A stretch of DNA of 64,000 nt from positions 9,488,634 to 9,552,633 of the forward strand of contig CP154954.1 of NCBI GenBank assembly GCA_039621445.1, written 5' to 3'. Shown here piece after piece: positions 15,620 to 48,703 of the stretch. Position 1 is the first letter of the stretch. Each line of letters opens with the position of its first letter. The translations under genes and the position numbers were made by a program. The DNA is from Euglena gracilis (Eukaryota). The notes beneath the pieces are model-generated. The model worked only from the letters and a program-made list of their open reading frames with translations. It was not told where the DNA came from and ran no database searches.

Positions 15620-15938
15620 AAAATATGTTTTTTTAAAAAAAAACAAAAAAACCTCATGGGGGTTTGGGGGAATTTTTTGAAACTTTTTCTTGAAAAAAGG
15701 TCTTTTTTCATCTCTGCAGCTTCGTAGTCTGTTAAAGGTGCTGGAAAAACTAAAAATACGTCACTTTTGATGACCAAAAAAATGACCTTAAAACCTTTTC
15801 GTCAAAAAATGGCCATTTTGCAAGGAAAAAACGTCAAATTTTGCTTTTTTAAAGAAAGAAAACAGGTTTTTGTGTGTTTTTCTTGAAAAAATATATATTT
15901 TTTGTTCTTTGTTGAAAAACAAAAAACCGTCAACCCTG
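15620..15938. mobile_element. AT-rich MITE-like repeat (same family as 20563-20965), within a larger ~15020-16220 insertion
   Basis: CTGGAAAAACT..GATGACCAAAAA..AAAAAATGGCCATTT.GCAAGGAAAAA shared with 20786-20895; ends CCGTCAACC, the reverse complement of GGTTGACGG at 20563. Confidence 0.55.
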
Positions 15939-20562: not shown

Positions 20563-20965
20563 AGGTTGACGGCTTGTTTTTTTTGAAACAAAAAAAACAT
20601 GTTTTTTTTAAAAAAATATGTTTTTTTAAAAAAAAACAAAAAAAAACCAATGGAGGGTTTCTGTGAAAAAAATCTATGAAAGTTATTTTAAAGGAAAAGG
20701 TCATTTTTTTCTTTGCAACTTCGCAGTCCGTAAAGGGTGATGGCTTTCACATGAACCATCATTTTAGTATTTTTGGATGAAGGGTCTGGAAAAACTGAAA
20801 AAAACGCCACTTTGATGACCAAAAACATGACTTTAGAACTTTTTCCTCAAAAAAATGGCCATTTCGCAAGGAAAAAGGTCAATTTTTGCTTTTTCAAAAA
20901 AAACATGTTTTTTTTGCGTTTTTTTAACAAAAAACATGTTTTTTTTTTTTTTTTGAGAAAAACAA
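20563..20965. mobile_element. AT-rich MITE-like insert splitting the element A third ORF
   Basis: Poly-A/T insert between two GC-rich coding fragments; inverted ends CTTGTTTTT / AAAAACAAG; second copy near 15620-15938. Confidence 0.6.
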
Positions 20966-27555: not shown

Positions 27556-27559
27556 CCGA

Positions 27560-29090
27560 CCATCATGCGCATAGCGGGTATGCAACTTAGCCAATGAGGC
27601 TTCAATATTACCAACATCCTGTTGTAACTGTTTGTGCAAATCGGACACGGTGGCCTTAAGTCCGCTAATATCCGGTGTTGGTGCACGGGTTGCCGCATTG
27701 CGGTTCTGCAAATCCGCGATTGCGGTCCGGATTTCCATTGTGTCGTTTTGCCACTGTTGTTGCAAATTGTCAATCCTACTCGCGACATTCGCGATTTGGG
27801 GTTGAAAACTCGCAATTTCAGCGGGAATTTCGCCTAATGGCGAGATTTCTGCTCCAATCGAGAAAGTCTTTCCTCCAAATGTTGCACATACGTGCGGGGG
27901 GCAAAACTTTGATTGGCTTGGGTAGAAAAGCGGGCAAAATTCGCGGAATCACCGCTCAATTAGAAAATGCGCTGTTGCGCTTCCTGAAATGCGGTTGAAA
28001 GTGTGGAGAACTGCTCCAATGTAATAAATTGTCCCAAATCGGGATTTTTTGATGGGGGGTTCATGCAACTTTTGCTGCAATTGTGGAAAAATTGCCGTAA
28101 TTGGCTCCAATTGATGGGACAAAGCTTGCAATCTATGTTGCATGTTGGAGAAAATCGCATCATTGCGGGATTGTGTTTCACACATGGCTTCACTCACTTT
28201 TTGGAAATGTTGTGGCAAATGTGCCTGCAAATGTGTGTCCAAACTTTGACGCAAAGTTGCTAGGTCCACATTGGTGGATTGAAAATTTGTTTAGCAATAT
28301 TCACCAACATCACGCACATAACTCCAAAGGTAATCGAGCTTGTGTTCTACAACCTTTTGGTTGTTTTCATCAAAATCCAAAACCTTGTTAAGTGTCATAG
28401 CGCAATCCGCTACACAAGTGTGGACATGGGAGATTTGCCGCGTTAGCGGGTAGTCCACTGGAAGATTTGCGACTATGCGTTGAATCACCGTAATGGGATG
28501 AGAAGAAATATTTTCCAACTCTTCCACATCACTGCTCATAGACTCTGTAGGACTTGTATAAGCAGGAACTGTCAAACGCATCTCCGGGTGCCATGGCAAT
28601 GCCGGAAAAGAACCCGTATCCGGTGGTGCGGGCAATTGTCCAATCGGACTTGTGGGGTGAAGCGTAGGGGGGGGGCTGAAAGAAACATGGTGTTTCTAAC
28701 GCACCTTCAACAAAAAGTTGCCGTGGCGTATCCGTCTCAGAGTCAAATGTGCCTATCGGCACCAGTGCGAGATCTCGCCGGGGGGAATGGGTGTTAGCCG
28801 ATCGGCTTTCCAACAAAAGGGGTTGTGCCTGTTGGGCATGGGGTTTGCTCTATAGAGCTTGACACCGATAGGTGTGGGGGTTCCCGTCGGGCGGGGGGAG
28901 GATTACTCGACACAGACACCGATAGGTGTGACACACGCGGGGAAGGAGGATGACCTGCCAAATGAGTCAATGCTTGTGTACCCCTATGGGGTTGAGGATG
29001 CTCATTAGAGCTAGTCAATGATGCCGCAGGTTCAAGTCCTCGAAGTGAACCAATCAATGCAGCGTAGTCAATGGGAGTTGTGCTGTGCAT
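27560..29090 (-). pseudogene. gag: Element A gag, N-terminal half only
   Basis: LETPCFFQPPP, PALPW.PE.RL, LNKVLDFDE.NQK match element B gag; joins directly to the pol start. Confidence 0.85.
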
Positions 29091-29351: not shown

Positions 29352-29662
29352 TGTACGTCCAACCTTTCCTCGCTTTCGCCCTTTGGTGCGCAAAAGGTAA
29401 AAGTTGGAGTAACAGAAAAAAATATAAAAAAATAATATAAAAGTTGAAAAGCCCTTTTCCCCAATTAAGAGGCAGAGCACAAGGCAGGTGAGAAGCCCTA
29501 TGGGCTACGACAAAGAAAAGTGCCAAGTGACTTGGCTGTCCTTTCAGGACTTCAAATGAAAACAAATCAAACTTGAAAATCAAGTCTTGAATGAAATACC
29601 AGAATGGAATAAAATAGAAAATACCACCAAGAACCAGAATAAGGATTGGGTATTCCTAATTC
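29352..29662 (-). repeat. 5' LTR of element A, outer end missing
   Basis: Shares ATTAGGA, GGTGGTATT, GGGAAAAGGG, GGCGAAAGCGA blocks and the GTACA terminus with the element B LTR. Confidence 0.7.
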
Positions 29663-29668
29663 AGGCCG

Positions 29669-31606
29669 TTGGCCATCTGTAGGCCAACGCCAATACAGTG
29701 CTGCTCTTGTAAGGAGTGGCATTGGCCTTGGTTTTGCTCGTCCGTACTACCATCCCGGGCAACAGTTCCGCCTCGTCCGGCGCCGACTCGGTGCGCCTTC
29801 CGCTTCCCCACCTCCGCTCAGGAACGCTGGCTGCCACCCTTTTCCTCCCTAACTGCCGTTCTGCGCTCTGGCAGAGGTTTCGCCCTGCTCTCCTGCGGCG
29901 ACATCGAGAGTAATCCGGGGCCCAACACCAATCGGGACTCCGCCAAAAAGACACGCCAGAATAGGGAGTCACAAGCCTCCACACCCTCTATACCCCACAC
30001 CGGTCTGTCTCAAGAAATGGCGTTGGCCTCCCTGTCCCCCGCACCATCCTCCCCAGCAGCAACGACGCTGCATCCCGGCCTGCCGTCCGACCTTGGTCCG
30101 GGGTTTTCCTTTGCCTCCCATGACACCTGCCCCTTTGCAGATTGCCCACGCTCGCGGACAACCATGACTCGCTCTCAGGTCCTATCTCACGTCTCTCAAC
30201 ACGTCGCCGCCGGACGATCACCCACCCCCGAATTTCTGCGAGCTACTGCGACCACGACTTGCGCCGTCTGTCGGACCTTGCTACGGGCAAGAGAACGTTG
30301 CCAATGCCCCCACCAGGGTGCCTTGGCCGTCCACGCTTCTCCACACCCCTCCGTCCCACTCCCCTCTTCACCGCACCAACCCGTCGGGAATGGCACTCCC
30401 ATGTCTCTCCCGTGCCCAGATATGCAGCCCGAGCTGCAGGTGGTTCTCTCCACCAACTGCCCCACTCTTCGCCGTTTCCCAGTATCAAGTCGTCACGCCA
30501 TTTGTGACGCCCTTGCATCCTCCATTCAGACCTTTCTCCAAGCCCAAACCTGGGAAGCTCTACACCGCCTGTTCATTTTTCCGAAACTCGTTCTTGGTGC
30601 CCCTCCCAAAACCTCGTCTTCCCATCAACACACATTGCATTGCCTCCTGGAAAAGAGACTGGCACAGTGGCACGCAGGAGAGTTTGCCGCTTTGTTTGAT
30701 CCGCTTCGCTCTGACAGACGGCGAAAGCGGCCCACCACCCGCGCCAACCCCTCTGGCTCTACTTCTGATTCTGTGGCACGTGGTCTTATGGACCAGGTGC
30801 GCGGACTCGTTGAAGAAGGGGCCCTCGGCAAGGCCGTGGACGCTCTCACCTCTTTGCCCCTGGCATCGCCTGGGGATCCAGCAGTGATGCAGAAGCTCCT
30901 TTCGCTCCATCCACACGGGTAGCCAGTTTGCCGCTGCCTGGGGAAGGCAATACGCCACAAACTAATGACTTCATCTGGTCTTCAATTGTGCAAGAAGCTG
31001 CAGCCTCTTTCCCGCGTGGTAGCGCCCCTGGCCCATCTGGTCTCCGTCCTCAACACCTTCGGGACTTGTTGGACCGTGAGGCCGGGACAGGCCCGCTGCA
31101 CACAGCCTTGGGGTCCCTGGCTCAGAAGGCCTGGGAGGGCTCTCTGCCAGCAAAAGCCTCGATCATCTTTGGTACGTCAAACCTGATCCCACTTACCAAA
31201 AAGGATGGCGGTCTACGGCCGATCGCCGTGGGGGATTGCCTGCGGCGCTTCATTGGGAAAATGCTTGTTGCGACACCCGCAGTGCAAAGCGGAAACGTCT
31301 CAGCTGTTCCCGCAGCAATTGGGAGTGGGGGTGCGCTACGGAGCGGAGACAGTCGGGTTGGCGGTACAGGCCGCACTGGCGTCTCTGCCAGTGGATGGCG
31401 ATTGGGTGGTTTTCCAGGCCGACGTTTCCAACGCCTTCAACACCATTGATCGATCCGCGTTCCTGCAGGCATCCCTGGACCTCTGCCCGTCCCTTTATAA
31501 CTGGCTCCGATTCTCCTACGGAGAAGACGTCCCACTTTTGTGCCAGGGTGACGTGCTGTGTCACAGCAGGACCGGTGTCCATCAAGGGGACACATGTGGG
31601 CCCATT
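29669..31606 (+). mobile_element. CRE-like non-LTR retrotransposon 1, 5' part (2A peptide, Cys/His motifs, RT N-half); degenerate
   Basis: LLSCGDIESNPGP; CPFADC..H..H; APGPSGLRPQHL, LRPIAVG, GVGVRYGAE, DVSNAFN, GVHQGDTCGP; stop at 30920 and a frameshift near 31290. Confidence 0.85.
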
Positions 31607-31927
31607 TGTGTACCAGGCGTATGCTTCTGTCCCCTTCCGTTGAGGAAGTTAGGATGGAAGCAGATCCTATTAGGATTTCCTAATGGGTGCCCCTTCTCTC
31701 TCCACAGGTGGTATTCTTTTATATTCTTCTTATACCTTTTCCTTCCTTTCCTTGGACCGGACTTGGTTATCCAGTCCGTCCTCCCTGCATTGCTCCGTGC
31801 TTTGCTTCTTGGGAAGTGGGAAAAGGGATTTTCTGTTACTCTGATTTTCAGTTCCCAAGTAGGTGCGCCAAGGCGAAAGCGAAGGCTTTTGGGAATTGGG
31901 AAAGGGGAATTGGGAATCAGACGTACA
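31607..31927 (+). repeat. 5' LTR of element B (~320 bp, TGTAC...GTACA termini)
   Basis: First 138 bp identical to 47918-48055; ends GTACA two bases before TGGTAGCAG. Confidence 0.85.
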
Positions 31928-31929
31928 CT

Positions 31930-32089
31930 TGGTAGCAGATTGGTTACGATCCTATACACACTTCACAAACAGAAAGGCTCCCAGGTTTTACACTTGGTAG
32001 CAGATTAGGTCACGATCCTACACATACAGCCCATACAGAAAGAAACGCTATCAAGTATTACACTTGGTAGCAGATTGGTTCGATCCTAC
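31930..32089 (+). promoter_or_regulatory. Primer-binding site, three tandem tRNAiMet-like copies
   Basis: TGGTAGCAGA...CGATCCTA at 31930, 31995 and 32065; complementary to the ...UCUGCUACCA 3' end and GGAUCG T-arm of many eukaryotic initiator tRNAs. Confidence 0.8.
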
Positions 32090-32278
32090 GCTGACTGGCA
32101 GCGGAGGGCCCCTGCACCGTTATTACACGGTCGCAGCGTCAGCTCCCGGCTTCTAGTCAACGTCTAAGCAGACGAGCAGGCTCCGGAAGGTTCTGTACGG
32201 TATTACCCGTTACAGCCCCTCTGGTGCCAGCACAACTGCTTAGTTTTGTGGGTTTTTGCTGTTTTTGTCATCAGAAAG

Positions 32279-35200
32279 ATGCAAAGCACAGGCCCCAACC
32301 ATCAATTCAATTATGCCTTATTACAGGCATCATTGCAAGACATTGACCAAGAAAATGGGGATTGGAAGCTTTTATGTGAAAGTGCTTCCAGTTCCCACGC
32401 CGATGAGGCACAATTGATTCAATTGTCACAATTACAACACTTGTCATCATTGACAGTGGTCGGCGATGAGCCCTCCACATCCTTGGCTTCAGAGGCTAAT
32501 GCGGCCTCTTCCGCACTCACCTTGCCACAACGGGGGTATTCGCCTCTGTCTGCGGCAACGGTGCAGCTGCGCACACCGGAGAGACCCGTGGTGATTCCGC
32601 CACCGGGCTTTTCTGGTGATGGTGGGTTGGAAACCCCGTGTTTCTTTCAACCACCACCCGCTCTTCCACCGGCAAGCCCTTACAGAGCTTTGCCACCACC
32701 CCCCGATATCGGGTGCTATCCCGCACTACCTTGGAAACCGGAGACTCGCCTCGTGGTGCCGGAATTCTCCGGTACATCCCAACCCATGGATGACTATGGG
32801 AAGGGCACTGGTGAGCTCCTCACTGCTGAGGATGTGCAGGATATTGTTGCTCGGCTTCCAGGGGATCACCCCCTTGTGAGGCAGTTCAACCATGTGCAAC
32901 AATGCGTTGCAGAGTGTGCAACCGCATTGAACAAAGTGCTTCAGTTTGATGAGGACAACCAGAAACATGTCTTCACCAAGCTGGAACACTGCTGGAATTA
33001 CTTGCAGGAAGTTGGCAGATATTGCCAGAGGAATTTCGAAAGTGCGGGTATTGACCTTGCAAACTTTCGGGAAACCTTTGACAGAATATGCCAACAGCTC
33101 CCGCAAAACTTCCGGCAAATTAGTGAATGCATGCATGAAGCGGAAACCCGGAATGACTCCAAGTTTCTGCACTTGCATGACTCACTACAACGGTTATCGG
33201 GACAAATGGAGTCCTGTTCATCCGCGTTGTTACATTTACAACAACAGTTACATGCACGAGATTCCTCGTCTGCAACATCCAGCAGTGGTGGATTTGTGTC
33301 TATGGACCATTTCACCACATTGTCCGCAGCTTTCCATGAATCGCAACACCGCATTATGCAGTTGTGCGATGAAACGGAAAAGTTTCGGCAATTCCAGTCA
33401 CAAGCCAACGAGAATTTTGCTCCCCACACGTATGTGCGGCAGTTGGAGGAGCGACTTTCCCGTTTGGAGCAGAAAACCTGCTATTGTGACGCGAATCAGG
33501 TTGGATTATCCAATCTGAGCGCGAAAGTCGCGGAAATGGCACAACGGCAGGATTCCCTGCAGTTGCAGTTGCAATCCGACATTGGCGGGATTAACTCGGC
33601 CATTGCGGGTTTGCAACAAAGCTATTCCGCACTTTCCCACCGAGTTCCGGACATTAGCGGTATTCAGACTGCTATTGGGGAACTCCAGACCCGGTATGCA
33701 TCGGTGTCTACCAAAGTAACGGAAATGCAGTCTCTACCGGCAGGTTCCAGTTTTCGGATTACCGAGAACCTTGATTTCAAGGCATTTTATGACAAAATGC
33801 TCACTAACAATCAGGAAACCTTGCAAGATTTATGCAACAGCCTATTACGGCTTGAGGAATCGGTGAATCGGAATGCCCGATCCACGCAAAGTGATATTAC
33901 CAGGTTGGATGAGCGAATTTCCGCGTTGGTGGATAAGCCACAACCCGGAAATTTGCCCGTGGGTACCACAACCGCGTTCTCGGATAACCCTGCACCGGTT
34001 GCACCCACCACCACACCAACCAAGGTGACATCACCTTTGCAGATTCTCTCAAATGCTGTAAAAGCATTAATGGGACAACTCCAATTATTGGATAAGTCTC
34101 ACGGGAAACTTGTCCAAGATGTTACCGGAATTTCCGAAAGGATTCCGCACTTGGATGACTTTTCCCGTTACCGCAAGCGTATTCGCGCTTTGGAGGATGA
34201 AGTTGACCGTATTTGCGGCCAACTCCAACTCGTTGAGCATTTGGAGCAAAGTGTGCATGACTTGTCTGTGGGTTTGGATAATGTGTCCAACCAACAGCGG
34301 GTTTCACACCGCAATTCGGCAGTATGCATTGCCGAAGATGCGCCAAATGTTCCAGAGTCGCGTTTTCATAACCCGGCTCTGGGTGCACATGCACCACCAC
34401 CACCCGTGTCCCGAATGTCACAATCCGCGATTCCGCGAATTGTGCCACCATTGGCCTTGTCCACAACCCAAACCCAGTTTTCGGATGAATTTCCCATTAC
34501 GGGAACCGAATTTTCGGAAAACACGGCGATTCCGCCAAGTCTCCACCAAGAAATCCATCATTCCATGCTTGTGCGTGGAATGAGCCAAACCCGTACACCG
34601 GGAGTGGGTCACATGTTGCATGCGCGACATACCCCCACACCGGAGAGTCTCCCTATTACGGGTGACCAACAGGGTTTGCGACCGGATTTCCGGTACCAGG
34701 ATTCACCTTCACCAGAAATTTCGCGATTCCGACAAGAATCCGGAAAGGATACGCTTGGTGCTCGAGCGTACCCGGCCCCGAATCCACGGAATACCACCGA
34801 GGGCCAACGGGTTTTTCAGAAAGACTTCAAGGGCACCATCGCAATCGCGAATAAGGTGAAACCCCAGTGGGATGGTGATCCAACCACATGGAGACAGTTT
34901 TTCCGGGACTGGGAGTACTATTGGGCATTGAAAGGGCCAACCCAGGACACAAACCCGGAGGTGATCAAGGTGGAATTCATCGATTGCCTCCCAAGGGATG
35001 AAAAGGAGCGCGCGCGACAACTTGTCATTCGCTACCGCGTTTCCTTTGATGACCTGGTGGAGCAATACGCTTCCACCAGTTCAAGTTTGGTCGCTAGGAT
35101 TACCCTGGAGACCAAGTGGCGGCAATGCGCCCCACCCGATTGCAAATGGAAGTCCATTGACCTTTGGTATGCCAAATGGTTAGGACTTGCCGCTGAAGTG

Positions 35201-36256
35201 GATGAACTCAGTGAAAAGCAAATGCGCGAACAGTTTGACGCTGTTCTCATGCATTTCACGCCTAGCCTCATCAAGGATATCCATCGTGAGGAGTTGGCGG
35301 GTAATGCAATGACTCTTGACCAACGCTGGAACTACGTTTCCAAGCAATTGAAGCTATCACAGCTTCTTGGTCAGATTCAATCCGCGTATACCGCACACCC
35401 AACCGCTGGATTACCGGCTGGTTCGGTAAACGCATTGCAAAAATCACCGGTTTCACCTACTTCACCCACCACGGGATCGAAAACGCGATACCCGCGTTCT
35501 TCGAACCAAGCCACGGATAAAGTGTGCTTTTTGTGCAACAAATCGGGACATATGTCTCGGGAATGTCCTAACCCTGAAGCGCGAAAGCGTATTCAGAGTC
35601 CGCGAGGCTCGACCTCATCACGAGGTTCGGGTTCCTCCGCGTTTTCACGCCAATCGGGCAATTCACGGTCATCGGGTCCCCGTTCCGGTGGTATTAGTCC
35701 CCGGATCCCGTTCCGCGATGAGCGGAAACACGGTACCCCTCGGGGTGGGTCACCCGGTGCCCCGGCCAAGAAGCGTGATTCTCATCGCGAGACATCGCGA
35801 TCGCGTTCGCGAAGCGGATCATCTTCTTCGCGATCGTCATCGAGAAAACCCCGATACACCGGTCATGGTCGACGGGATATCCGGTCACCACGACGGTTTG
35901 ACGGGAAATCGGGAAACCGATCCCCCCGTTACCCAGAATCGCGACACAAATCTCGGTGTTCGCTTTGTGGATCGAGTGATCACCACTCATCCAAATGTCC
36001 GCGTTCTCGTTCTCCCCGCCCTGGCCAACGTCATCGCGGTATGAATCGCGGTGACAAGGGTCACTCCTCCAACCGCCATAAAGTCGGTTTCAAGATATCT
36101 TGTTTGGAGGATGACACCCCGGCTTCGGGCAGGGAGGGGGATGAGACCACGGATACCGATTTCGACGAGGCCCGCATGGCGGTGCGCACGTTGAAATCCG
36201 TTTATACCTCTAAAAGGCCCATAGCCGGCTATTCGGCCGGTTCGGACCTGGAGTAG
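32279..36256 (+). CDS. gag: Gag, 1325 aa: long coiled-coil-like N-terminus, capsid-like region, two CCHC zinc knuckles, RS-rich tail
   Basis: Open frame from ATG 32279; WDGDPTTWRQF; CFLCNKSGHMSREC and CSLCGSSDHHSSKC. Confidence 0.92.
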   Translation: MQSTGPNHQFNYALLQASLQDIDQENGDWKLLCESASSSHADEAQLIQLSQLQHLSSLTVVGDEPSTSLASEANAASSALTLPQRGYSPLSAATVQLRTPERPVVIPPPGFSGDGGLETPCFFQPPPALPPASPYRALPPPPDIGCYPALPWKPETRLVVPEFSGTSQPMDDYGKGTGELLTAEDVQDIVARLPGDHPLVRQFNHVQQCVAECATALNKVLQFDEDNQKHVFTKLEHCWNYLQEVGRYCQRNFESAGIDLANFRETFDRICQQLPQNFRQISECMHEAETRNDSKFLHLHDSLQRLSGQMESCSSALLHLQQQLHARDSSSATSSSGGFVSMDHFTTLSAAFHESQHRIMQLCDETEKFRQFQSQANENFAPHTYVRQLEERLSRLEQKTCYCDANQVGLSNLSAKVAEMAQRQDSLQLQLQSDIGGINSAIAGLQQSYSALSHRVPDISGIQTAIGELQTRYASVSTKVTEMQSLPAGSSFRITENLDFKAFYDKMLTNNQETLQDLCNSLLRLEESVNRNARSTQSDITRLDERISALVDKPQPGNLPVGTTTAFSDNPAPVAPTTTPTKVTSPLQILSNAVKALMGQLQLLDKSHGKLVQDVTGISERIPHLDDFSRYRKRIRALEDEVDRICGQLQLVEHLEQSVHDLSVGLDNVSNQQRVSHRNSAVCIAEDAPNVPESRFHNPALGAHAPPPPVSRMSQSAIPRIVPPLALSTTQTQFSDEFPITGTEFSENTAIPPSLHQEIHHSMLVRGMSQTRTPGVGHMLHARHTPTPESLPITGDQQGLRPDFRYQDSPSPEISRFRQESGKDTLGARAYPAPNPRNTTEGQRVFQKDFKGTIAIANKVKPQWDGDPTTWRQFFRDWEYYWALKGPTQDTNPEVIKVEFIDCLPRDEKERARQLVIRYRVSFDDLVEQYASTSSSLVARITLETKWRQCAPPDCKWKSIDLWYAKWLGLAAEVDELSEKQMREQFDAVLMHFTPSLIKDIHREELAGNAMTLDQRWNYVSKQLKLSQLLGQIQSAYTAHPTAGLPAGSVNALQKSPVSPTSPTTGSKTRYPRSSNQATDKVCFLCNKSGHMSRECPNPEARKRIQSPRGSTSSRGSGSSAFSRQSGNSRSSGPRSGGISPRIPFRDERKHGTPRGGSPGAPAKKRDSHRETSRSRSRSGSSSSRSSSRKPRYTGHGRRDIRSPRRFDGKSGNRSPRYPESRHKSRCSLCGSSDHHSSKCPRSRSPRPGQRHRGMNRGDKGHSSNRHKVGFKISCLEDDTPASGREGDETTDTDFDEARMAVRTLKSVYTSKRPIAGYSAGSDLE

Positions 36257-39200
36257 GGGAGCCCGAGGTCCGAGGGCACGGACCTCTGGGCTGATGAACA
36301 GATGGAGGTGGGACCTGATCAACCCTGCCCCCCCTGCCCATCTGCCTTTCTGGTCGGTACCCGGAAAATTTTCGGGTCCCCCACCCCCCACTCCAACTTT
36401 CCGCTCGGAATGTTGTGCAAAGTAGAAAAGGGTTCATGGGAAAGCTGGCAAGAAAACGTATTTTCGCCAGACCCTTCACTTTTCCTACCCCCCATGGAAC
36501 TTTTGGTCCAAGCGGAAATCAAAATCCAAAATTTTTGTACAAAAGTCAAAATTCTCATTGACACTGGTTGTCGCATTGCACTACTTTTTCGGTTTGGGCT
36601 GATACCAACCCCCCTCTTGGTGAAAGCCAAGAAGCCGATCAAAATTACGACGGCTGACAACACCCCCATGTGCGGTGGTGACTTGGGATGCTTTTTGGAC
36701 ATAGTCTTACCCCTCATCCCCAAGCACCACTCACACCCCCCCCAACCGCAAAATTTTCCGGATACCTGGGGATACGAATACGGAATCCATGGTTCTGACA
36801 TAATTCTGGGATACCCCTTTTTACGTCAGCACCGGCTGGTAGTGGATTGCCACTCCCACGGTTTGCGCACGTCACCATTCTCCTCATTGCCCCCCAAACC
36901 CTCATCACCTGTGGCGTCAACCGCGATAGCCACCAATTTTTCCACACCGTTTTCGAAAACTTTTACCCCGTTACCAACCACACCAACCAACGTTTTCCAC
37001 ACCGGGTGTACCGAGAAAGTTCACCCCCTGCCCATTGACACACCAACTTCCGTTCCCCATGAGGCAGGGCAAGCGAGTAGCGGTACCCCCCTCGTTCCAC
37101 TGTGTTACAAGACGAAAGCCCAAAGGCCTGAAGTTATAACGGTGTCGAGTAGTCGCCCAGCTGCACTAATACCCCGTTTTCCACCAGATGTATCGCTTCC
37201 AGATACATCTGTATACCCCCCAGCAGCTTCAAAAGCGCATCCCAACTTTTACACACACCCCCACCAGACCAACATGCGCGACCAGGACCACTACTCCGAC
37301 ACTTCCTTCCAATGTGTGCACTGTAGGAGAATTTCCGCCCAGCCAGATTTCGATTGTGGATGTCTAGTCCAAACACCAACACTAATCCCGATTTCGCGTA
37401 ACCATACACTTGGTTGCGGATCGCAATGCGCGACCGTACATCAAGTGCTCCAACAACGAGGTATTGCCTTGTTGTTTGGGACCGCGAAATCCGTGTCACA
37501 CACCTCCCCCACCTCCATCTGGCATGATATGGACTGGGTATGTACCCATCCAACCCATCAACCCTTGGGAATGCCCCTTGGGAGTGTGGATGACACACCC
37601 TTGACCTATGTTTGCGGATCCCTGAATTGCGTTACCGCTCTTCAACCCGCGAACCAGGTCGACACCTACGCGATGCGCGTCTGGAACGCATTTAATTTTG
37701 GTCAATACCGTATTTTGGAGGAATGGTTCTCCAAAATCGCGGCTTTGGCTGATTCCTTCGATTTGTCGTTGGAAATTGATGCGTTCTCATCAAAAGCGCA
37801 TGCGCGCTTGTCGCGATGTTGGTCGCGACATACCAACGCATTTCTTAAATTCTGGGGTGATACGGTGCTATGGATGCACCCTCCCCCAAAACTTATCCCG
37901 GATGTGGTGGAGAAAATCCTCCGCGATGAAGCGCGAGGAGCTCTCCTCATACCCGTCAATCCGAATGCGGATTGGTTTCATCAACTATCCTATGTGTGTT
38001 TTCATTGGTGGGATTTACCCGCTGATGTACCACTATTTGAGGATTTTTGTGGTATATTATTACCACCTGTTAAAGAAATCATTTTTCGCGTTTGTTTCTT
38101 CGACGCATTCGGAATATCCGATTTGCGTGTGCCAAGATACCTTGGTACCAATGGGGATGCCACACCCTCAACGCAGATTTCTGCGGTCATTGAGAGTGCG
38201 GACCAACATCCCAAGTCTGCTGATTATTGTTCGCGAATTGCTCGCGAATTTCATGGTGTACTGGATAATCCAGTTTACGCCTGCGACATCGACCCCGCGA
38301 TTCGCGGTCCGTTCGGTGTTTGCAAAATCGAGCTCAAGGATGGCGCTAAACCTATGCACCGGAAATTCTTCCGTTGTTCGGGTGAACGCGAACAGGCTCT
38401 CAACGAGATGATTGAGAAGCTCATCCAGCGGAAGTGGATTATCCCTTCCAAGAGCGAGTGGACATCACAAGCTTTTGTGGTGCCCAAACCCGCTGACCAG
38501 TCTGGTCAGAAGAAGTGGAGACTAGTGCTGGATTACCGGTACCTGAACTCCCAAACGAAGGATGACCCCTTCCCGTTACCGCTGATCGAGGATTTGATCA
38601 CAAAACAATCGGATAACCGGTTGTGGTCAATCTTTGATCTGGAAGACGGTTTCCATCAGATGCATTTGCATCCTGATTCACAACCGTACACGGCATTCGT
38701 GACATCCAAGGGTGTGTACCAATGGACGGTACTCCCCATGGGTGTTAAGAATGGCCCAGCCATGTTTCAACGCATGATCCAGTGGGTTTTGCGCGATTTA
38801 CCGTTTGCTCTGGTGTACATCGATGATGTAATGGTGGGAACCCAACCGCCATCCGCGAAATCGGGCGAGGATATCCTCGACCCGCATTATCGCGATGTGC
38901 GCGCGGTATTATCCGCGTTCCAAAAGCATGTGCTTTTTGTGAAGGGTTCCAAAATGCACCTGTTTCGCAAAATTATTAAGTTTTGCGGACACATTCTGAG
39001 CAACGGGCAGCGTAAAGCCGCACCCAGTAAGATGGAGGCCATTAAGAAATGGACTCCTGAGGTCATTAAGACTTTAACGCATTTAAAGGGATTTTTGGGA
39101 TTAGCCCAATACTACGCGATTTACATGAAAGATTTCGCGAAAATCGCGGTACCCCTAACCCGACAACTCAAAAATCGGACACCCGATAACGCCAAAGTCA

Positions 39201-41383
39201 TTTGGGATGACCAAATGCGCGAGGCCTTGAATAAAATCAAGGACTTGCTTCTCGAGAACGTGGTTCTCGATATCGCGGATCCATTCAAACCGTATGTCCT
39301 GGAGGTCGACAGCAGCGATTACGCTGTTGGCGGGGTCCTTAGCCAGCATAATGCGGCGAATGAACTCCGACCTGTGGCTTTCTTTAGCAGGAAGCTACAG
39401 GGCGACAACGGGAAAGGACAGGTTAAATGGAGCATTCGCGAAAAGGAGACATATGCCATTGTGCTAATTCTCCAGAAGTTCCGCAGCTGGATAGCCAGCA
39501 GCTTGGTCCAGATACTAGTGTTGACGGATCATGAGAGCCTTCAACACTGGTATACCGAGGACCTGAACAAGGCCATGTCATCAGTTGGCAGAAGATGCCG
39601 ATGGCATGAGTTCTTGAGCCAGTTTAACCTGGTGGTAGTTTATCACCCAGGTCATACGCAAAAAGTTGCGGATCCTCTCAGCCGAGCCCCCTGGTATTAT
39701 CCTGGGAACCCGGATGAGGGTGATGCGACTTTTCATGGCAGCCATGAGGCTGACCAGTTCGCACGTCGATCCGACGCTGCGGACAACATGCTCGATTCAC
39801 TACCGGTTTCCCGGGTGTATCGCAGCATCGCCATTTCACCATTGCGTGGAAGGCGCCGGCGTGGACGCACTGCCGGACCCCGTCGCATTACGCGTACGGA
39901 AACTCCTACCCCCCTATTTTTCCGCGAATGGGATTATTCGCGTGACCCTATATACAGTACCATTGTGAATAGACTTCGTAATGGTGAATCCATAGAGAAT
40001 TACTCTCTATCACCATTGCGGCTTATTTTCCGGAATGATTCTGGTTATAAATATTGTATACCCCAAGACCTGGTTGATGATGTGATTTTGAGCTATCACA
40101 ACCATGGTCACCCTGGGGCCCCCAAACTTCTTTCACTAGTGGGTCGCAGATATTGCACAACCCTGAGTGAAAAAGAATTATATTCGCGCTGTTTGCAAAT
40201 TTCGCAACGGTGCCAAATTTGTCAGGCTGTGAAACCGCGCAGAGGTACCCCCCCTGGTACGATGGACTTTTTCCCCGTACCACCTGACATTTTTACGTCC
40301 CTCTGCATGGATTTTCTCGAACTTGAACCTTGCAAAGGATCAGATGACAAAATTTACGATTACGTTTTTGTTGTCGTCTGTCGGCTGAGTGGGTACATAG
40401 TAGCCATTCCATGCCGGAAAGCAGGGTTGACAGCCCAAATTTTGGCATCTATATTCCTGGAGAAATGCATCTGCTTAATGGGTTTACCGAACGAAATTGT
40501 GAGTGATCAAGATCACTTGATCTCTTCACGGGTTTTCACAACTTTGTGCGGTTTACTCGGCATTGAGCAGCATTTTTCCACTATATACCGCCCGAAAGGC
40601 AATGGTAGGGCCGAGGCAGCCGTGAAATCCGTTGTCAATATGCTTCGCCTTTCACTGGCTGACTCGGGTAAGAATTGGTTATCCGTTCTTCATTGGTGTT
40701 TATTTTACATCAATACCTTGCCAGGGTTGGTATTACCACACTCACCGTACAAAATTGTTTTCGGACGTGACCCTCCGGCCATAGGGGATATCCCCTCGGA
40801 GAGACCCGCCCGAAGTAGCGTCAGCTGTGAAACGTGGTTTGCAGAAGTGGAATCACTCCGCTCTGCAGTCCAATCACGTATCACAGAAATTCATTCCAAC
40901 AAACGGAAATCGTTTTTGCAGAACTTCAACACACCTGTGTATAGTCCAGGTGACCGCGTGTGGGTACGGAATAACCGCACCCGCATGCAATCTTCCAAGC
41001 TAGATCCTCTTTGGCTCGGCCCATGCGAAATTTTGGAGAGGTTAGGTAGTAGCGGGCGATATAAAGTTGCCTTGCCCAACGGGATTGAGGACGTCCATAT
41101 GGACGACTTCAAACCGTACCTAAGCCCCCCAGACGGAAAAGCTATCCCCTGCCTATATTTCAAGCCCCGTTCCAGATTACCTGAAACGGACGACTTTGTG
41201 GTCGATAAGATAATAGACCACAAGGTCGACAGGGGTGTGCACTACTGGAAAGTTCGCTGGAAAGGGTATGGGCCAGAGGAGGACACTTGGGAGCCAGCAT
41301 CCAGTTTTGTTGGATATGTCCAACAGGATTGGAAGCTGTGGAACAAGCGCAATAACATAGACATAAACATAAACACTTTCTGA
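36257..41383 (+). CDS. pol: Pol: aspartic protease, Dam-like methyltransferase, RT, RNase H, integrase, chromodomain; in frame with gag
   Basis: ILIDTGC; IDAF..NAF..W..LWMHPPP; YIDD (38816-38827); [18 protein letters not shown] and [26 protein letters not shown]; no internal stops. Confidence 0.97.
37690..38110 (+). other. Dam-like N6-adenine DNA methyltransferase domain within element B Pol
   Basis: [20 protein letters not shown]...[30 protein letters not shown].....WF matches the motif spacing of phage/DIRS Dam domains. Confidence 0.8.
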
Positions 41384-41578
41384 AACGATTTCGTTTTGGA
41401 GAATGCGTGTGTTTTATGTGAATGTTTCGCGTTTATACCCCCCCCTGCACTTCATTATTTCTCTATCTTTCTCGCAGAGTTTTGATTAAGATAGAAGCCT
41501 TACTTTTTCAGTGCACCAGCACTCAAAGCGACTGACAACAAGGTTACCCTTAGTTGTCGTCGTCGTTCGGGTAGCATC

Positions 41579-44500
41579 ATGCTGCCTGGGCGCGGACCTG
41601 GACCAGGTCCACCATGGCCGCAGCCTTCTGGCGCGCCATACCCCCAGTACCCTCAGTATGCTGAGGCCCCGATTCCGGGTGCCCCACATGCCGAGAGGAG
41701 CGCAGCCCCGGTATTCGCCGCGGCTACCAGCAGCCGGTCCGCATATGCGGTACCAGATCCATCTGCCGTCCAGCAGCCGGCACCTCAGCCACCAGCGCAG
41801 CGCAGATCGCGCCTGCCCCCGTATGCGGGAGAGATGATCTTCCGCACTACGGAGACGTTGGAGCGGGCGATGCGTATGTGCGCACACCCCCCAACGGAGC
41901 CCTTTATGCAAGCCCTTTGGGATGCATACTGTGCTCAGTTGTTGGTGGTAGCCAACACCCTGTGGCTCAGTGGTGTCCCTGCGGTCAAGCCCTGATGACG
42001 GGGAGACGGTATTTCTCGTCCGCAGCCGATTCCGGCTTCGAACCCGGCGAGACCATGATGGACCTGGGCGTGTATGTGCCGCCCATGCTGCAAACGCAGA
42101 CGCCGGTGGGATCCCACACCGTGCATATGCGTGAGCACACGCCCCCACCGGTAGGTGAGGCTGTGCATGTCCCACCTGGGATGACGAGAATTTTTGCTCG
42201 CCCGCCCTCGCCGCAGCGAATGCCGCCGCGCGAGCCACCAGCGGAGCAATTTGTCTCGCGGTACGCGACGCACGCGGATTACCCGCGCGGCGCACGCGTG
42301 CTCCCAGCCGGACAGTCGGACGTGCCCTCTGAGGCATACGTCCAACACATGTTCATGCACTGGATGCCACAAGCATCACCGGTCGCCCCTGTCCCTGGCG
42401 TTGAGCCACGGAGACAGGCGGAGCCCATAGTGGTGGAGGATGAACCTCCCCACCGAGAGGCAGCCCGACCGCCCAGTGCAGCCCCTGTCCAGACTGGGGA
42501 TGTCCCCCGTCGGCAGGAGGCTCTCTACTATCATATGGCACCTCCGGGAACCGAGCAGGATGAGCTTGCTCGGCACTTCCTGCAGGAGCCAGTATTCGCG
42601 TCTGAAGAGCACCGGACGAGGTATTACGCCTCTCTGGCTGCCCTTCAGGGTCGTGGATACACCCCCTACCATCCGTACCAGCCGCAGCTGCGGGTGGCAA
42701 CCCCGGTATTACCCGGTGAGCCCCCGGCAGGAGCGGCAGGATTACCTGCCACCCTGAAGCGCGATAGGGTTACGGAGAACCTTACCCCACAGCCCAGGCG
42801 ACCCAGCCCACGGGACGCGGAAGGCGGTGCGGCAATGCAGGTGGAAGCCAGCCAGGATACCCCGGCTGGGCAACCACCGGCAGTGGCACAGGCAGCGATG
42901 AGCCGTCCTGTTGCCGCAATGCCACCGCCGATCCCTCCGGTATGGAAGGAGCCGCGACCCCCTACGCCGAAACCAAGCCCACGCCAGGCTCCTAGCCAGC
43001 GCCCAGCCACGCCGTCACCGCGACGTGCAGCGGAACGACAAGGTCCCTCCCCAGAGATGGAATGGGAAGGTACCGAACCGACTCCTGCCGCACCGAGCGC
43101 CCGACCCTCTGGTATTCGCCAGACAGGGAAGGACAAAGGTAAGGCTGAGGGCAAAGGCAAGGGAGAAGGCAAAGGCGTGGCCGGCAAAGGTAAGGGTGAG
43201 GGGCAAGGGTAAGGGTACAGCCCGTGAGGAGGAGGAAGAACCAGCAGAAGTCCTCTCGGACTTTGAGCATATGCTCAGGTTCAAGGAGGAGCTGGAGGAC
43301 GAAGGCTGGCGAATGCAGCATGATTACCATGTTGCAGGAAACCGCCCCGTCACCCCTCCGGAGGCAGTCATCGAGGTGGTATTACACCACACGAGAACAG
43401 AGTCAGACAATTCCATTACGGAATTGACCTGTACGCCTTCGAAGGTGAAGGTGGCAGACCCTTGCTGGATATCCAGCCGGGTTTCTGGGAACTCTGGTTT
43501 TGGCTGGGATACCCCTGCCAGAACTGGGGTCTCTTCAGCGACTCCACTGGCCGCAGTTACCTGCACCAGTTAGGATTTCGGGACCAGCATGTGTTGGCCC
43601 GAAGGCTGAAGGCAATCTTCGACTGTATTCACACAGTCGGGCCCCTCGGTGTGCAGTGGAAATACTACCCACTGAACCCCGACATCGAACGCCTGATCGA
43701 GGTGTTGTGGTGCAACAACCTCCAGGTGTGGCTGGTGAGCCATTACGGCTCCACCTTCCGCGTTAAGCGCGTTTCCCTGGCTTACCCACAGAGGTATGAC
43801 CTCTGTTGTAAGTATTGCCGGCAGGAGTTTCCTGTCGACTTCTGGGGATTCGGCGTACGCGGAAGTCCTCCACCGCCTCGGGATAACCCGGGCCTGGAGA
43901 TGGGACGCCGCATGCTTATGCATGTGTGCCGCGACGCCCCGGATGTCCAGGGCAAAAGTCGCCGCGTCCATAAGCAGCGTATTTTTATGCTGCAACAGTT
44001 CTGGTGGCGAGCCTGGACCACCTACGTCATGGAGGTGTATATACATCTCCGTGACCCCCAGGACGATAGGCCTGGTATGGAAAGCTTGCCACCAGACTAC
44101 GGCGACCCCGTTGAGGGACCTCGTCGTCGTCGGGTTATCGCCGACCTGCGCCCCAACTGGCACCTGGCCGGGATAGACCTGGAGGAACATTTGAGGCGAC
44201 AGTTTGGCGGTACCCTCGACAGGGAGGTATTCCTTCCGCTGATGGCTCACCCGAAGGCCATCCTCGACCTGGGTATGCCAATTCTGGCATGCGCGCAGGA
44301 GTTCGAAGAGGGCTTTTTCGAGGTCTGGGAAGACACGCGTTACCGCGGCTTCCTGGGCCCGAACAGGCCTGCAAACGCTTGGGTGCAGCCATCATGGCCG
44401 CCACCCTGGCCCAACAGTGCCAGCAGCAGCACGCTGGCCTTTTACAGGCTGGCGGATGCCCAGGGATGCCGATGGCACCCCGACGATCCTCGTTCGCCCG

Positions 44501-47100
44501 AGGATCTGCGCGCCTTCATCGCCCCAGAGGATGAACCTCTGGCGCGAAGGAGACGTGAGGCGTCAGTCGCTTCCACCACCGCGATTCCGCGGCGGGAGGA
44601 ACGCGACCGCAGCCCCTCCGTCACCATTCTGGAGGCAGCGCCGCCGTCTCCGACAGGAACGGCTGTATCATTCGTCTCTGCCCCGCGAGCGGCAGGGGAA
44701 CGATCAGTTTCCCCGGCCCCCGCGGCGGCAGCTCCCGTCTGTCCACCGGTAGGTGGAGACGAGGAACTCCCTCAGGAGGAAGGCGAGAACGTGGAGGATA
44801 TCCTCTACGCTGCTCTGCATCCTCTGGCACAGCCTAGGCCAGACGAAGCACCCGCAGGGGATATACCTGTGGCTGCTACGCCTGTTCCAACGGCTGAGCC
44901 TCCAGCCGAGGTGACTGGTATGGTCGTCGAGGATATCCTCGAAGAATCTGCCAGTCCCACAGCACGCACCTCGTTAGGAGGCCGTGTGCTCGGCGCCGTA
45001 GTCACCGGCATTACTGCCGTGGCTGCTGCACTAACGCCACGAGGTGGAGGCGCAGCATCAAGCTCCGCCGCTGAGGTCGTGGAGACACCAGATGTCGGTG
45101 CGCCACCACACACATCTCTGGCAGCAGTGCAACCACCATCAGGGGATGAACCCCAGCCGACAGAGACATCTGTCGCACCGGCTACATCGGAGGATGAACC
45201 TCCCGTAGCACCTGCGCCAGCGGTTGTGGAGGATCAACCTCCTAGACCGGATGTCGAAATGGAAGTGGAGAGTATACCCCCACGACCACCGACACCGCGC
45301 AGGGTCCCTGCAGTCCCGAGGACAATGGCAGAGTTTCTGGGAGCGCCAGCGCCTGTGGAAGCACCGATTCCGGTGACGGCCACAGTACCACGCTTCGTCG
45401 GACAGGATGAACCTGTTCGGCGACGGCCGGCTGAACAACCCCAGGAACGAGTGCCAACCCCTCGGAGCGTCATGCGCGACCCAGCGGTCAGTATGCCCGC
45501 TTCGCCCAGACGGCAAACGTCTACTCCGGCACCATCGGCTCCTGATACCAGGAGTAAGCCGCAGGCGTCGTCTCCTGATTCCGGGAGTGCGAAGCCGAAA
45601 GGAGGCAAACCGGGTGCTGCACCCTGTAAGCCCCCTTCCAAAGGCGGTGATGGGAAACCACCACCGAAAGGTGGCGCTGGAGGTCAGACTGGCGGACAGC
45701 CGAAAGGCCCTACGACAATGCACGACTATTCGGCCGTTGCATCGTCCGGGTACGGCCAGAGCAAACCGAAAGGTAAGGCTCGTGGTCGACAGGCCCAATC
45801 TTCCGCCGGATCGACGGATGAGGAGCAGGATGAACCTGCTTCACCTCCTGTGTCTGCGGATGCCCAGCTCTGGACCCAGGATATCCTGACCGGACTAGGC
45901 ACCGTGGAAGAGAGGACGAAGAAACTGGCTGCTATTAGGCACCAGAAAGGGTCACTGAATCGATGGATTCAGCCCCTCTTCGTCCGAGGAGAACCTTTCC
46001 ACTATGTCCCGGAACATACCTGGACATTCTGGAACAGGCGCTCACCCAGAGTACTGGCACAGTACTTTGGCGAGGACTGCGTGTTGGATTTCCAGCACGG
46101 CACGTCCTTTGCCTGGACGTGCACCGTATGCCACCATGTGCGGCATAACCAACCGCTTGTGCATGTGTGCAAGCGGCAGGTGCAATCCTCGTGGTTCCAT
46201 CACAGGGCATATGTGCCGAACTGTGTGGCGCTCGTATGTGGCGAGTGCCTGAATGCCTGGAAGCACAGCTTGAACTACTCCTACAGTGAGAATGCTCACG
46301 ACAGGGATATCCCTGCCTTGTGCATCAACTGTATAGGAGGCAAGTTCGTGCAGACTGCTGATGGAGCAGTCACCACCATTGTCCCCCAGCACTGGGAGAC
46401 ACTGGAGAAGTGGAAGAAGGAGTACAAGCAGGTGGAAGGACGCCTGAAGCACTCCGACTTCAAAAAGGTAGAAAGCTACCGCCACACGGGAATGGCCCGT
46501 GAGTTCCAGATCGACGCTGGGGCAATGCGCCTCGCCGTCGAGGAACATGCCAAGGTAAGAATGCCTTACCTCTGGACTGATGGCGACTGGGAGACACAGG
46601 TTTACCCCCTGTTCTCCAAGCGTCAGCATGGCGGATACGCCTTGCCACTGTGGCCTCCTGAAGAACACGATTTGGTGGACTTCAGAGGTTGGTTGGCGGC
46701 TGTATTACGGCCCCATACCGCAAGAGCTCGGACAGCGAGGTGGATGTATGACATCAACTTCAAGCAGACCCCGGGGATGCCCCCGCAGGTGCCTGCGAAT
46801 CACCCCCGGATGAATTACATCATCTGGCCGGTGATGCTGCCCAGAATTTTCTGGGAGCAGCTCCAACGGTATCTTCAGCATCATGCTGAACGTACCAGGG
46901 AGAAGCTGCCGGATAATTGGATCAAGGACTGGGAGACCCCTTCCTTTGATGTCAACGATCCGGAGCTCAACACCATTCGGAGTGAATCAGCTCCGCCGCG
47001 TTCCCCACGCCAACTGGAGTTGGTTGAGGACCCATTAGGGGACCCCCAACACGACTACTGGCGTGAGGTCCGCGAACGTCCAGCCGATAAAGGCAGGTGA
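41579..47100 (+). CDS. Large third ORF of element B (~1800 aa if joined; frameshifts near 41955, 43200 and 43370), Pro-rich with Cys/His domains, function unknown
   Basis: Overlapping ORFs 41579, 41878, 42911 and 43462; the element A homologue reads through the breaks in one frame. Confidence 0.75.
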
Positions 47101-47907
47101 GGTGTCTGTCAGCGCCAATGCGGCGTCTTTCAGCACCCTCGTCAGGTATTCGCCTGACACCCTGTTTGGGTATTCGCCCGAACACCCCCTTCGAAGACCC
47201 TTTGCGGTATTCGCCGCTAGTAAGTTCCCACCGGGATGCTGCCATGTGCAGGATTCCGTGCGCATGCATGAACACCCCTCTCCCCTCTCCCCTCTCGCGG
47301 GCGTGCGACACGCAGCGCACAGGGCCGACGGCCTCTTTTCCTTTCTCTTTCTTTTCTTTTTGGCCGTTTGAGGCCTTAAGGCTGCCAGACAGCACAACTT
47401 TTCTGGCCTAAGCCAACCCCCCACTCCTCTCTACTTTCCCCCGGGGCAAATGCTGTCGCCGGCAGTTGGTTTTGTAGAGTAGGATTTCCTTTTGCGTGGT
47501 CAGGTTTGACTGGCCACGCGCCCTGCCCAGGTTTGACTGGTCAGAGGCCCCCTCCTTCCACACCCTCCCCATGGGTTTTCCTGGAATGCCCATGGACCAA
47601 CCCCCGTGCCTTTGGCACACCCAAACTGGGTGGATGGGTTTGCTTGGCAAGGAAACCTGCCAGCCCCATTTTCCCCAGTGGGCTATAATATACTATACCC
47701 CATAAGCCACCGCAAAATAGGTGAAACCATTTTGCGCGTTTTGGGCTTTTTGGGTCCCCTCCTTTCCGCCCCCCCTTTGAGTGGACCCCTGTGCGACGGA
47801 AAGGGCCCCTGTGGATGCGCCAGGGTGCACCTCCCACAGACCAGGTCTGTGTCCGAAATCCCTGTGGCCAGAATGCCTGGTCCAAAGGGGAAATCGGGCA
47901 GAGCCCT

Positions 47908-47917
47908 GGGAGGGGGA
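47908..47917 (+). promoter_or_regulatory. Polypurine tract of element B
   Basis: GGGAGGGGGA immediately before the 3' LTR start TGTGTAC. Confidence 0.85.
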
Positions 47918-48055
47918 TGTGTACCAGGCGTATGCTTCTGTCCCCTTCCGTTGAGGAAGTTAGGATGGAAGCAGATCCTATTAGGATTTCCTAATGGGTG
48001 CCCCTTCTCTCTCCACAGGTGGTATTCTTTTATATTCTTCTTATACCTTTTCCTT
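47918..48055 (+). repeat. 3' LTR of element B, only the first 138 bp present
   Basis: Identical to 31607-31744, followed by CCATT and host RT sequence. Confidence 0.9.
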
Positions 48056-48703
48056 CCATTGCCTTTGCCTTGGGTCTCCATCAGGCGCTGCAACAGGCTT
48101 CGGCCAATTTGCCCAACACGGTGTGGCAGGCATGGTACTTGGACGACGGCACTGTCATCGGCCCTGCCATTGATGTTCTGCCTTTTACGGCGTCTCTGGC
48201 CACGGCACTTGGCAGCGTTGGGCTCCACCTCAACCCCTCTAAGTGTGCCTTGTGGTGACCAGGTGTACCCTGTGCCACTCCGAAACCCCCGGCTCTTCAG
48301 ATCCTGCCTCCCGACCACCTTCCACAAAACTTCCCGGTCACCCCATGGGGACCGGGCAGTGGCATCCTGTGCCTAGGGGTACCCTGCGACTATCCTGGTG
48401 ACTGCACCTTTTCTGACACCGCGTGGGCCAAGGCATCCGAAAAATTTCAAGCTACCATCTCGCGCCTCCAACAACTGCCGGATCCTCAACTCCAACATTG
48501 TTTGCTGCGCAACTGTCTGGATGGCTGCCGCGCGTCACGCACCTTCTGCGTCAGACCAACATTTCTCCGGGACTCACAATGTGCAAGTGATCTCCGACTC
48601 CATCCGGAGTGCTGCCTCTGACATTGTGGGGGCACCCCTGTCTGCCTTGCATTGGAAACAAATCACCTTGCCGTGCAATAAGACAGGGTGGGGCATCACA
48701 GAC
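48056..48703 (+). mobile_element. CRE-like element 1, continuation of RT
   Basis: Resumes in frame: GP|IAFALGLHQ..WYLDDG..LNPSKC..LGVP..DPQLQHCLLR..LP....GWG. Confidence 0.88.

Follow-up and report, generated by a model that had tools for sequence, protein, structure and literature searches.

Element A, a long terminal repeat (LTR) retrotransposon of Euglena gracilis, carries within its Pol polyprotein a domain of the DNA adenine methyltransferase (Dam) family that, to judge from its altered catalytic motif, has probably stopped methylating adenine and may serve as a noncatalytic, Dam-derived binding module, a reading we hold at a little better than even confidence. The element lies in a stretch of 64,000 nucleotides (NCBI GenBank assembly GCA_039621445.1, contig CP154954.1, positions 9,488,634 to 9,552,633 of the forward strand), called the window here and numbered from its first letter (Table 1). 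It is an apparently coding-competent Ty3/Gypsy retrotransposon of the chromovirus type and belongs to a kind recently named DAM-LTR (Fernandez-Moreno et al., bioRxiv 10.64898/2026.05.21.726589, 22 May 2026). A preliminary description of the window had placed a Dam-like block between the protease (PR) and the reverse transcriptase (RT) of an uninterrupted Pol, in an integrase-type Gypsy element with identical LTR copies and a chromodomain. All of this was borne out: the block lies in a 1708-amino-acid (aa) frame, downstream of a PR with a predicted retropepsin fold; the two LTRs agree at 140 of 140 bp; and Pol includes rve, Integrase_H2C2, and Chromo domains, the last at 38.4 bits.

Sequence comparisons identify the block as a true relative of the phage and DIRS Dam family. 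Its landmarks are VDTYAMRV at 37658, IDAFSS at 37775-37792, NAFLKF at 37835, LWMHPPP at 37868, and FFDAFG at 38096. The direct match to Pfam PF05869 falls under the gathering score of that family (28.1 bits) and covers profile positions 20-105 of 169; it reaches 15.9 bits (E of 0.01) within the whole Pol and 20.5 bits (E of 4e-4) when the block is scanned alone. Profiles were more sensitive. Alignment A1 joined the Dam block of element A with those of copy B, a decayed relative in the same window, and of P0002, a protein of 1208 aa from a metagenome contig. When its profile was searched against 1.84 billion representatives, it matched 666 proteins at E≤1e-3, 108 at ≤1e-10, and 11 at ≤1e-30, and all 17 long matches that were scanned contained Pfam Dam at E≤0.01, 8 of them above the gathering score (29.5-49.2 bits). 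Alignment A2 holds 40 sequences, namely copies A and B and 38 short profile matches, of which 31 match PF05869 at E≤0.01 (best E, 1.5e-11). The closest relatives of the block score just 17-25 bits against Pfam Dam. Word-indexed protein searches gave P0002 (1 of 1040 candidates) and the fragment P0003 (1 of 103) as their sole matches, and the Atlas neighbors of the block come from Porifera, Mollusca, Preaxostyla, and Nematoda.

Structure prediction points the same way. The AlphaFold2 (AF2) model of the block, computed on A2, has a pLDDT of 92.7 and a pTM of 0.85 and is confidently predicted to be a class I (Rossmann) methyltransferase. Its best matches in BFVD are phage DNA N-6-adenine-methyltransferases, at E of 1.1e-9 to 1e-6; the phage matches have TM scores of 0.6-0.67 and root mean square deviations (rmsd) of 2.3-3.6 Å over 130-150 columns (for the very best, 0.65-0.67 and 2.3-3.3 Å over about 145 columns). 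BFVD hits at E≤1e-3 number 19. The structure check proposed in the preliminary description, AF2 followed by a fold search, thus returned a Rossmann-fold amino-methyltransferase. Among solved structures, the model is nearest to PCIF1/CAPAM (Foldseek E, 9.4e-4; VIA Z, 10.5; rmsd, 2.7 Å over 127 residues), and T4 Dam (VIA Z, 8.4), EcoDam (8.2), and M.TaqI (7.9) follow. KsgA/DIMT1, METTL5, and Erm, which are adenine-N6 class I methyltransferases, are also among the best solved matches.

The rank of PCIF1 in this comparison raises the idea of a PCIF1/CAPAM-like module that carries out cap-adjacent methylation of the m6Am type on the element's RNA or mimics PCIF1 to engage RNA polymerase II. Giant-virus PCIF1-like proteins are also among the BFVD matches, and Iyer et al. 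(2016, PMC4738411) group the DIRS1 methyltransferases with PCIF1 and propose an RNA polymerase II role for DIRS1. We nevertheless consider such a module improbable. No PDB chain, PCIF1 included, is similar in sequence to either profile (A1 gave one chance match at E of 1.7, and A2 gave none), whereas Pfam Dam is matched by most of A2. In BFVD, phage Dam proteins reach 1e-9 and PCIF1-like proteins 1e-5 to 1e-3. Moreover, Pfam finds no WW domain in Pol, the motif IV defect described below would affect a PCIF1-like enzyme too, and PCIF1 may lead the solved structures simply because the PDB has no structure of the PF05869 type. Element A's domain thus resembles PCIF1/CAPAM in fold alone and differs from it in sequence, in lacking a WW domain, and in lacking NPPF.

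The domain appears to be a stable part of the element. The PR-Dam-RT arrangement is common, by sequence, to element A, copy B, P0002, and a wider clade of database proteins. The pol of copy B is ~77% identical to that of A in nucleotides; it is broken up among three frames, contains 8 in-frame stops, and has ETG in place of the protease DTG. P0002 is 73% identical over the Dam block and has the domain order of A. Dam lies N-terminal to RVT_1 in 6 of the 17 long database matches. Across the protease-to-Dam interval, 8 relatives can be aligned (23-46% identity), and the linker's CxxC...CxC motif is conserved among them. Ratios of nonsynonymous to synonymous change (dN/dS) were calculated per region by the Nei-Gojobori method for the single pair A and B, and because dS is saturated (1.1-1.9) they are rough: 0.14 for the Dam block, 0.14 for the protease, 0.15 for the integrase, 0.04 for RT, and 0.52 for the linker between protease and Dam. 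The uncorrected proportions (pN/pS) follow the same trend, at 0.185/0.653 in the Dam block and 0.309/0.479 in the linker. Purifying selection on the block would therefore be, as far as such rough ratios tell, as strong as that on protease and integrase; the domain has been kept in a second copy and is not evolving neutrally there.

These results bear on the suspicion that the block is a nonworking insert, whether a piece of a DIRS element nested within pol, a product of chimeric assembly, or a motif that matches by chance. The subthreshold Pfam score of the block alone could be taken that way, and Fernandez-Moreno et al. caution about chimeras and nested insertions in Euglena. The suspicion is already contradicted, and we give it next to no weight: one uninterrupted frame crosses the block, the domain order recurs in copy B, P0002, and the long matches, the block is far more constrained than the adjoining linker, and the fold match to phage Dam is strong. 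In addition, contigs of 903-981 nt from RNA-type sequencing runs (one recorded as RNA and two guessed to be RNA) cross the block and both of its sides.

The catalytic site is where element A departs from its family. In motif IV (D/N/S-P-P-Y/F/W) of amino-methyltransferases, the target amino group is held by a hydrogen bond from the first residue, and the flipped base is stacked against the aromatic one. Element A reads HPPP at 37877-37888, as do the fragments P0003 and P0059; copy B and P0002 read HPPL. The residues that are near-invariant in the 40-sequence alignment (D54, F56, W79, W85, P89, K99, G107, and P112) are all present in A, and a motif I-like D-x-F is kept as IDAFSS (D54, F56). For a wider view, the profile was used to align 153 domain stretches, 145 of which include motif IV. 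Among these 145 relatives, the motif begins with Asn in 95, His in 28, Cys in 13, and another residue in 9, and the full NPP[F/Y/W] is found in 62. An aromatic fourth residue accompanies Asn in 74 of 95 cases but His in only 6 of 28 (raw Fisher p, 9e-8, with kinship ignored).

A quick maximum-likelihood tree of 72 rows (a second element of the window, element C, and those 71 of the 153 stretches that had 110 or more aligned positions; the 82 shorter ones were omitted) places A, B, and P0002 in one clade (SH-aLRT, 99). This clade falls within a larger group (14 rows; support, 87) in which NPP[I/L/V] is the prevailing motif. Changes between Asn and His at the first position number at least 5 on the tree, and all 8 rows of one well-supported clade begin the motif with His. 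An independent-pairs test of coupling between His and aromatic loss found just 2 pairs on supported branches, and we claim no coupling. Ordinary adenine methylation by the Dam domain of the A clade is doubtful, because both the Asn and the aromatic residue of motif IV have been lost and the fourth residue varies between close copies. The suggestion in the preliminary description that the element may methylate its own cDNA is weakened.

We therefore favor a Dam domain that is a pseudo-methyltransferase module within the Pol polyprotein. The analysis establishes its predicted fold, its family, its position in Pol, the purifying selection on it, and its altered motif; what such a module binds or does is our inference. 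It could hold the RNA or cDNA of the element, or S-adenosylmethionine (SAM), during reverse transcription; alternatively, it could recruit host factors. The chromodomain, for its part, would steer integration of element A. There is a precedent for a fold that outlives its chemistry: METTL14 is a pseudo-methyltransferase with a degenerate motif IV (EPPL) that acts as a nucleic-acid-binding scaffold and works with an active partner, METTL3. Element A's domain is like METTL14, by analogy and with no homology claimed, in combining a selected Rossmann fold with a degenerate motif IV; unlike METTL14, it has no known active partner of the METTL3 kind. Related domains have also been judged inactive or have behaved so. 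Iyer et al. (2016, PMC4738411) call the methyltransferase domains of all DIRS1 copies "likely inactive," and, in the preprint by Fernandez-Moreno et al. (10.64898/2026.05.21.726589), DIRS and DAM-LTR domains expressed in dam-deficient E. coli produced no gain of N6-methyladenine (6mA).

Several observations weigh against a noncatalytic module. The motif I-like residues and both motif IV prolines are kept, and purifying selection at a dN/dS of 0.14 suits an enzyme as well as a scaffold. The His at motif IV looks selected rather than decayed, because it recurs and is fixed in a clade, and this could mean changed chemistry. Also, Fernandez-Moreno et al. report that, in three species, DAM-LTR copies bear more 6mA than other LTRs do, an excess that favors a methylation-linked role for the class.

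The same observations can be gathered into the opposite reading, in which the domain is an active, or respecified, SAM-dependent N6-adenine methyltransferase that would place 6mA on the element's own cDNA or RNA:DNA intermediate and so provide permissive chromatin for new insertions. Self-marking by 6mA is the model put forward in the preprint (10.64898/2026.05.21.726589), where the 6mA excess over other LTRs is reported for ichthyosporeans and Euglena. Fold and family fit an enzyme, the motif I-like D-x-F and both motif IV prolines persist, dN/dS is 0.14, and a His that is recurrent and fixed in clades may be tolerated at the Asn position. Moreover, element A is a recent insertion that is covered by contigs of an RNA-recorded run. 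Even so, we regard this reading as rather unlikely for element A. The change from Asn to His, together with the loss of the aromatic residue (Pro in A; Leu in B and P0002), removes both of the residues that position and stack the target adenine in the amino-methyltransferases studied, His-first relatives as a raw count seldom keep the aromatic residue, and the heterologous assays of the preprint were negative even with canonical domains.

Much of the novelty that the preliminary description saw in a Dam domain within Gypsy Pol has been overtaken by the same preprint, which is the first to claim DAM domains for LTR retrotransposons other than DIRS ("DAM-LTRs"). Fernandez-Moreno et al. report 10,030 eukaryotic DAM proteins and name five DAM-LTR lineages (Chlorophyta chromovirus-like, Chloro-Ochrophyta with DAM between RT and integrase, Ichthyosporea, Pyropia, and Euglena), and chromodomain-bearing LTR elements make up 30.9% of their DAM-bearing transposable elements. 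DAM-LTRs are associated, though not by definition, with hosts that have 6mA and encode AMT1. Our literature searches on DAM-LTRs and on adenine methyltransferases in chromodomain LTR elements returned no other paper. The kind is thus already described, and element A is a divergent variant of it. Like other DAM-LTRs, it is a Ty3/Gypsy-type element with LTRs and with Dam in one open reading frame (ORF) together with RVT_1 and an rve integrase; like the "DAM-chromovirus-like" ones, it has a chromodomain, and its Dam is related to the DIRS and eukaryotic DAM family. It differs in that its clade reads HPP[P/L] at motif IV, whereas the preprint reports Asn-Pro-Pro as conserved in almost all DAMs; in that its Dam lies between protease and RT, whereas the sole position given in the available text is the RT-integrase interval of the Chloro-Ochrophyta lineage; and in its large size (16.5 kb) with two extra conserved ORFs. 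The preprint's hmmsearch threshold of E 1e-5 would very likely miss the Dam of element A, because the block scores just 15.9-20.5 bits (E of 0.01 to 4e-4). Screens with thresholds of this kind would undercount Dam-bearing LTR elements.

Comparison with the older members of the family is equally instructive. A Dam-like "MT" domain in DIRS elements was described by Goodwin and Poulter, and element A shares with DIRS1 the domain family and the layout D-A-F-A/S-S...W...L-W-x-N/H-P-P-x...K...P-x-W. Unlike DIRS1, it has no tyrosine recombinase family in Pol, ORF3, or ORF4, as scanned with Pfam, and its Pol instead has rve, the H2C2 zinc finger, and Chromo. Its LTRs are direct and identical, whereas DIRS elements have split or inverted repeats, and its Dam lies 5' of RT, whereas the DIRS domain is downstream of RT and RNase H. 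With phage PF05869 (T1-like Dam), element A shares the domain fold (BFVD E, 1.1e-9; TM, about 0.65); it differs in its partial profile match, in the replacement of the catalytic NPP[Y/F], and in being embedded in a retroelement polyprotein.

We propose, tentatively and with less than even confidence, that element A represents a sixth DAM-LTR lineage, a giant active chromovirus in which, with His and the loss of the aromatic residue, Dam has been repurposed as a pseudoenzyme or for new chemistry or a new substrate, and that the module was captured or reshuffled on two or more occasions, because the host has a second DAM-LTR family with an NPPW Dam upstream of its protease. If so, the change from Asn to His arose independently in other clades and became fixed there. 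Should His variants bind without methylating, the whole DAM-LTR class may act through binding or recruitment and not through deposition of 6mA. Retrotransposons with chromatin-modifying modules reveal how mobile elements manipulate host epigenomes, and the window offers a natural comparison within one region, between the young and intact element A (HPPP) and the family of element C (canonical NPPW).

Table 1. Features of the window.
Feature	Position	Strand	Remarks
Element A, Ty3/Gypsy-type, Dam-carrying	31607-48057	+	16,451 bp
5' LTR of element A	31607-31746	+	140 bp; exact identity with 47918-48057
gag-like ORF	32168-36256	+	1362 aa stop to stop; first ATG at 32279; zf-CCHC at aa 1119-1135 (Pfam E 3.8e-6)
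pol ORF P0001	36257-41383	+	1708 aa; stop-free; standard code
Protease region	36470-36910	+	DTG at 36560-36568; AF2 model pLDDT 88.9, retropepsin matches
Cys motif CxxC...CxC in protease-Dam linker	37313-37363	+	kept in A, B, P0002, and consensus of relatives
Dam-like domain	37658-38116	+	Pol aa 468-620; profile, AF2, and fold matches
Reverse transcriptase RVT_1	38483-38998	+	Pol aa 743-914; Pfam E 1.2e-26
RNase H	39203-39625	+	Pfam PF17917, PF17919
Integrase: Integrase_H2C2 zinc finger, rve core, Tf2-type SH3	40058-41104	+	Pfam
Chromodomain	41195-41302	+	Pol aa 1647-1682; PF00385 E 1.2e-9, 38.4 bits vs cutoff 25.1
Accessory ORF3, Pro-rich	41665-43212	+	515 aa stop to stop; homologue 3' of pol in copy B
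Accessory ORF4	43324-47100	+	1258 aa stop to stop; homologous pieces in copy B
Polypurine tract GGGAGGGGGA	47908-47917	+	adjoins 3' LTR of element A
3' LTR of element A	47918-48057	+	140 bp; exact identity with 31607-31746
Copy B, decayed relative of A	12958-28708	-	gag-pol(PR-Dam-RT-RH-IN-chromo)-ORF3-ORF4
Dam block of copy B	about 25580-26023	-	reads HPPL
Element C, degraded Gypsy-type	59542-63857	-	Dam-PR-RT-RNase H-integrase; window ends before 5' part
Dam of element C	about 63530-63857	-	NPPW; N-terminus cut by stop

The build of element A is that of a Ty3/Gypsy chromovirus, with direct LTRs, the order PR-RT-RNase H-rve, and a C-terminal chromodomain, and the Atlas neighbors of its RT-integrase region are Gypsy-type clusters of mixed taxa (Oomycota, Basidiomycota, Chordata, and Streptophyta). 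Its LTRs were found by self-BLAST of the window and then checked base by base; a separate repeat search of 28-46 kb gave no match. Identity of the LTRs points to a very recent insertion. To the left of the element, an RT frame of the long interspersed nuclear element (LINE) type ends in ...HQGDTCGPI, and to the right, the LINE RT frame picks up again with IAFALGLHQ...YLDDG, so element A is inserted in a LINE RT gene. The flanks have only ATT (3 bp) in common at its ends, and the norm for target-site duplications in Ty3/Gypsy elements is 4-6 bp. The LINE-like host of the insertion occupies 29660-31606 and 48058-48376 on the plus strand and has a 2A-like peptide, GDIESNPGP, near the start of a 420-aa frame; 2A-like sequences are known from non-LTR retrotransposons of the APE type (PMC3708506).

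Within element A, gag and pol are in phase and are separated by a single TAG at 36254-36256 (context, TAG GGG AGC), which suggests that Pol is expressed by stop-codon read-through rather than by frameshifting. A variant genetic code as the explanation for the in-frame TAG was rejected: the other ORFs stop at TGA, TAA, and TGA, and the in-frame stops of copy B include all three kinds. The protease region is matched only weakly by Pfam (Peptidase_A3, E of 0.066). Its AF2 model, from a 10-sequence alignment, has 10 PDB chains at E≤1e-3, and every top PDB match is retropepsin-like (Ddi1 RVP and the RSV and HIV-1 proteases). The Cys motif between protease and Dam may be a zinc-binding knuckle, though the linker otherwise evolves fast. 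Downstream of pol, both accessory ORFs are conserved in copy B and have a GC content of ~0.61, compared with 0.50-0.52 in gag-pol. Neither ORF3 nor ORF4 matches a Pfam family at E≤0.1, and scoring ORF4 against 7999 candidate proteins of 691-2202 aa yielded no homologue.

Sequencing runs provide a further view of the element. The pol sequence is partly present in 20 of the 24 runs listed, and one of these 20, a leaf-litter metatranscriptome recorded as RNA, contains 45% of the sampled words. Four runs were aligned to element A, all as contigs, which give no measure of transcription level, strand, or copy number. Contigs of the RNA-recorded run and of the two runs guessed to be RNA together cover all 30 bins of element A, and one contig of 2402 nt joins the end of pol to ORF3. 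This coverage is compatible with transcription of element A but is no proof of it, as an RNA library may contain DNA. Within ORF3, each of the three RNA-type runs has contigs that depart from A by single-base length differences in two places; the reading frame there therefore varies between copies. The family of element A is highly repeated, as evidenced by the 124,822 contig pieces of one DNA run that aligned to the element, a number that does not translate into copies.

The second Dam-bearing element of the window, element C, has a Dam (DCFAT...LWMNPPW) that scores 32.3 bits against Pfam, above the cutoff, over only 39 residues. Its first frame starts within Dam and continues into the protease sequence ILIDTGA. 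In the tree, this Dam is far from the A clade, beside an NPPW sequence. Judging from their sequences, the host has at least two DAM-LTR families with Dam at different positions in Pol, because elements A and C place it differently within one window. Beyond the Gypsy-type elements, the database protein P0139 (1114 aa) has rve at aa 109-183, Dam at aa 561-606, and RVT_2 at aa 974-1074; this is the domain order of Ty1/Copia, and a Dam-like domain separates its integrase from its RT.

Elsewhere in the window, an Rfam scan gave 0 matches and a tRNA scan 0 genes, and a satellite with a 79-bp unit occupies positions 1-12245 as a tandem array of ~140 copies or more, most of which are 94-97% alike. The ratio of observed to expected CpG is 0.94-0.98 in element A, 0.89 in the pol of copy B, 0.60 at 48-58 kb, 0.51 in element C, and 0.49 in the satellite. 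It drops with apparent repeat age, with TpG/CpA in excess, a pattern that would fit methylation and deamination at CpG sites in the host's repeats.

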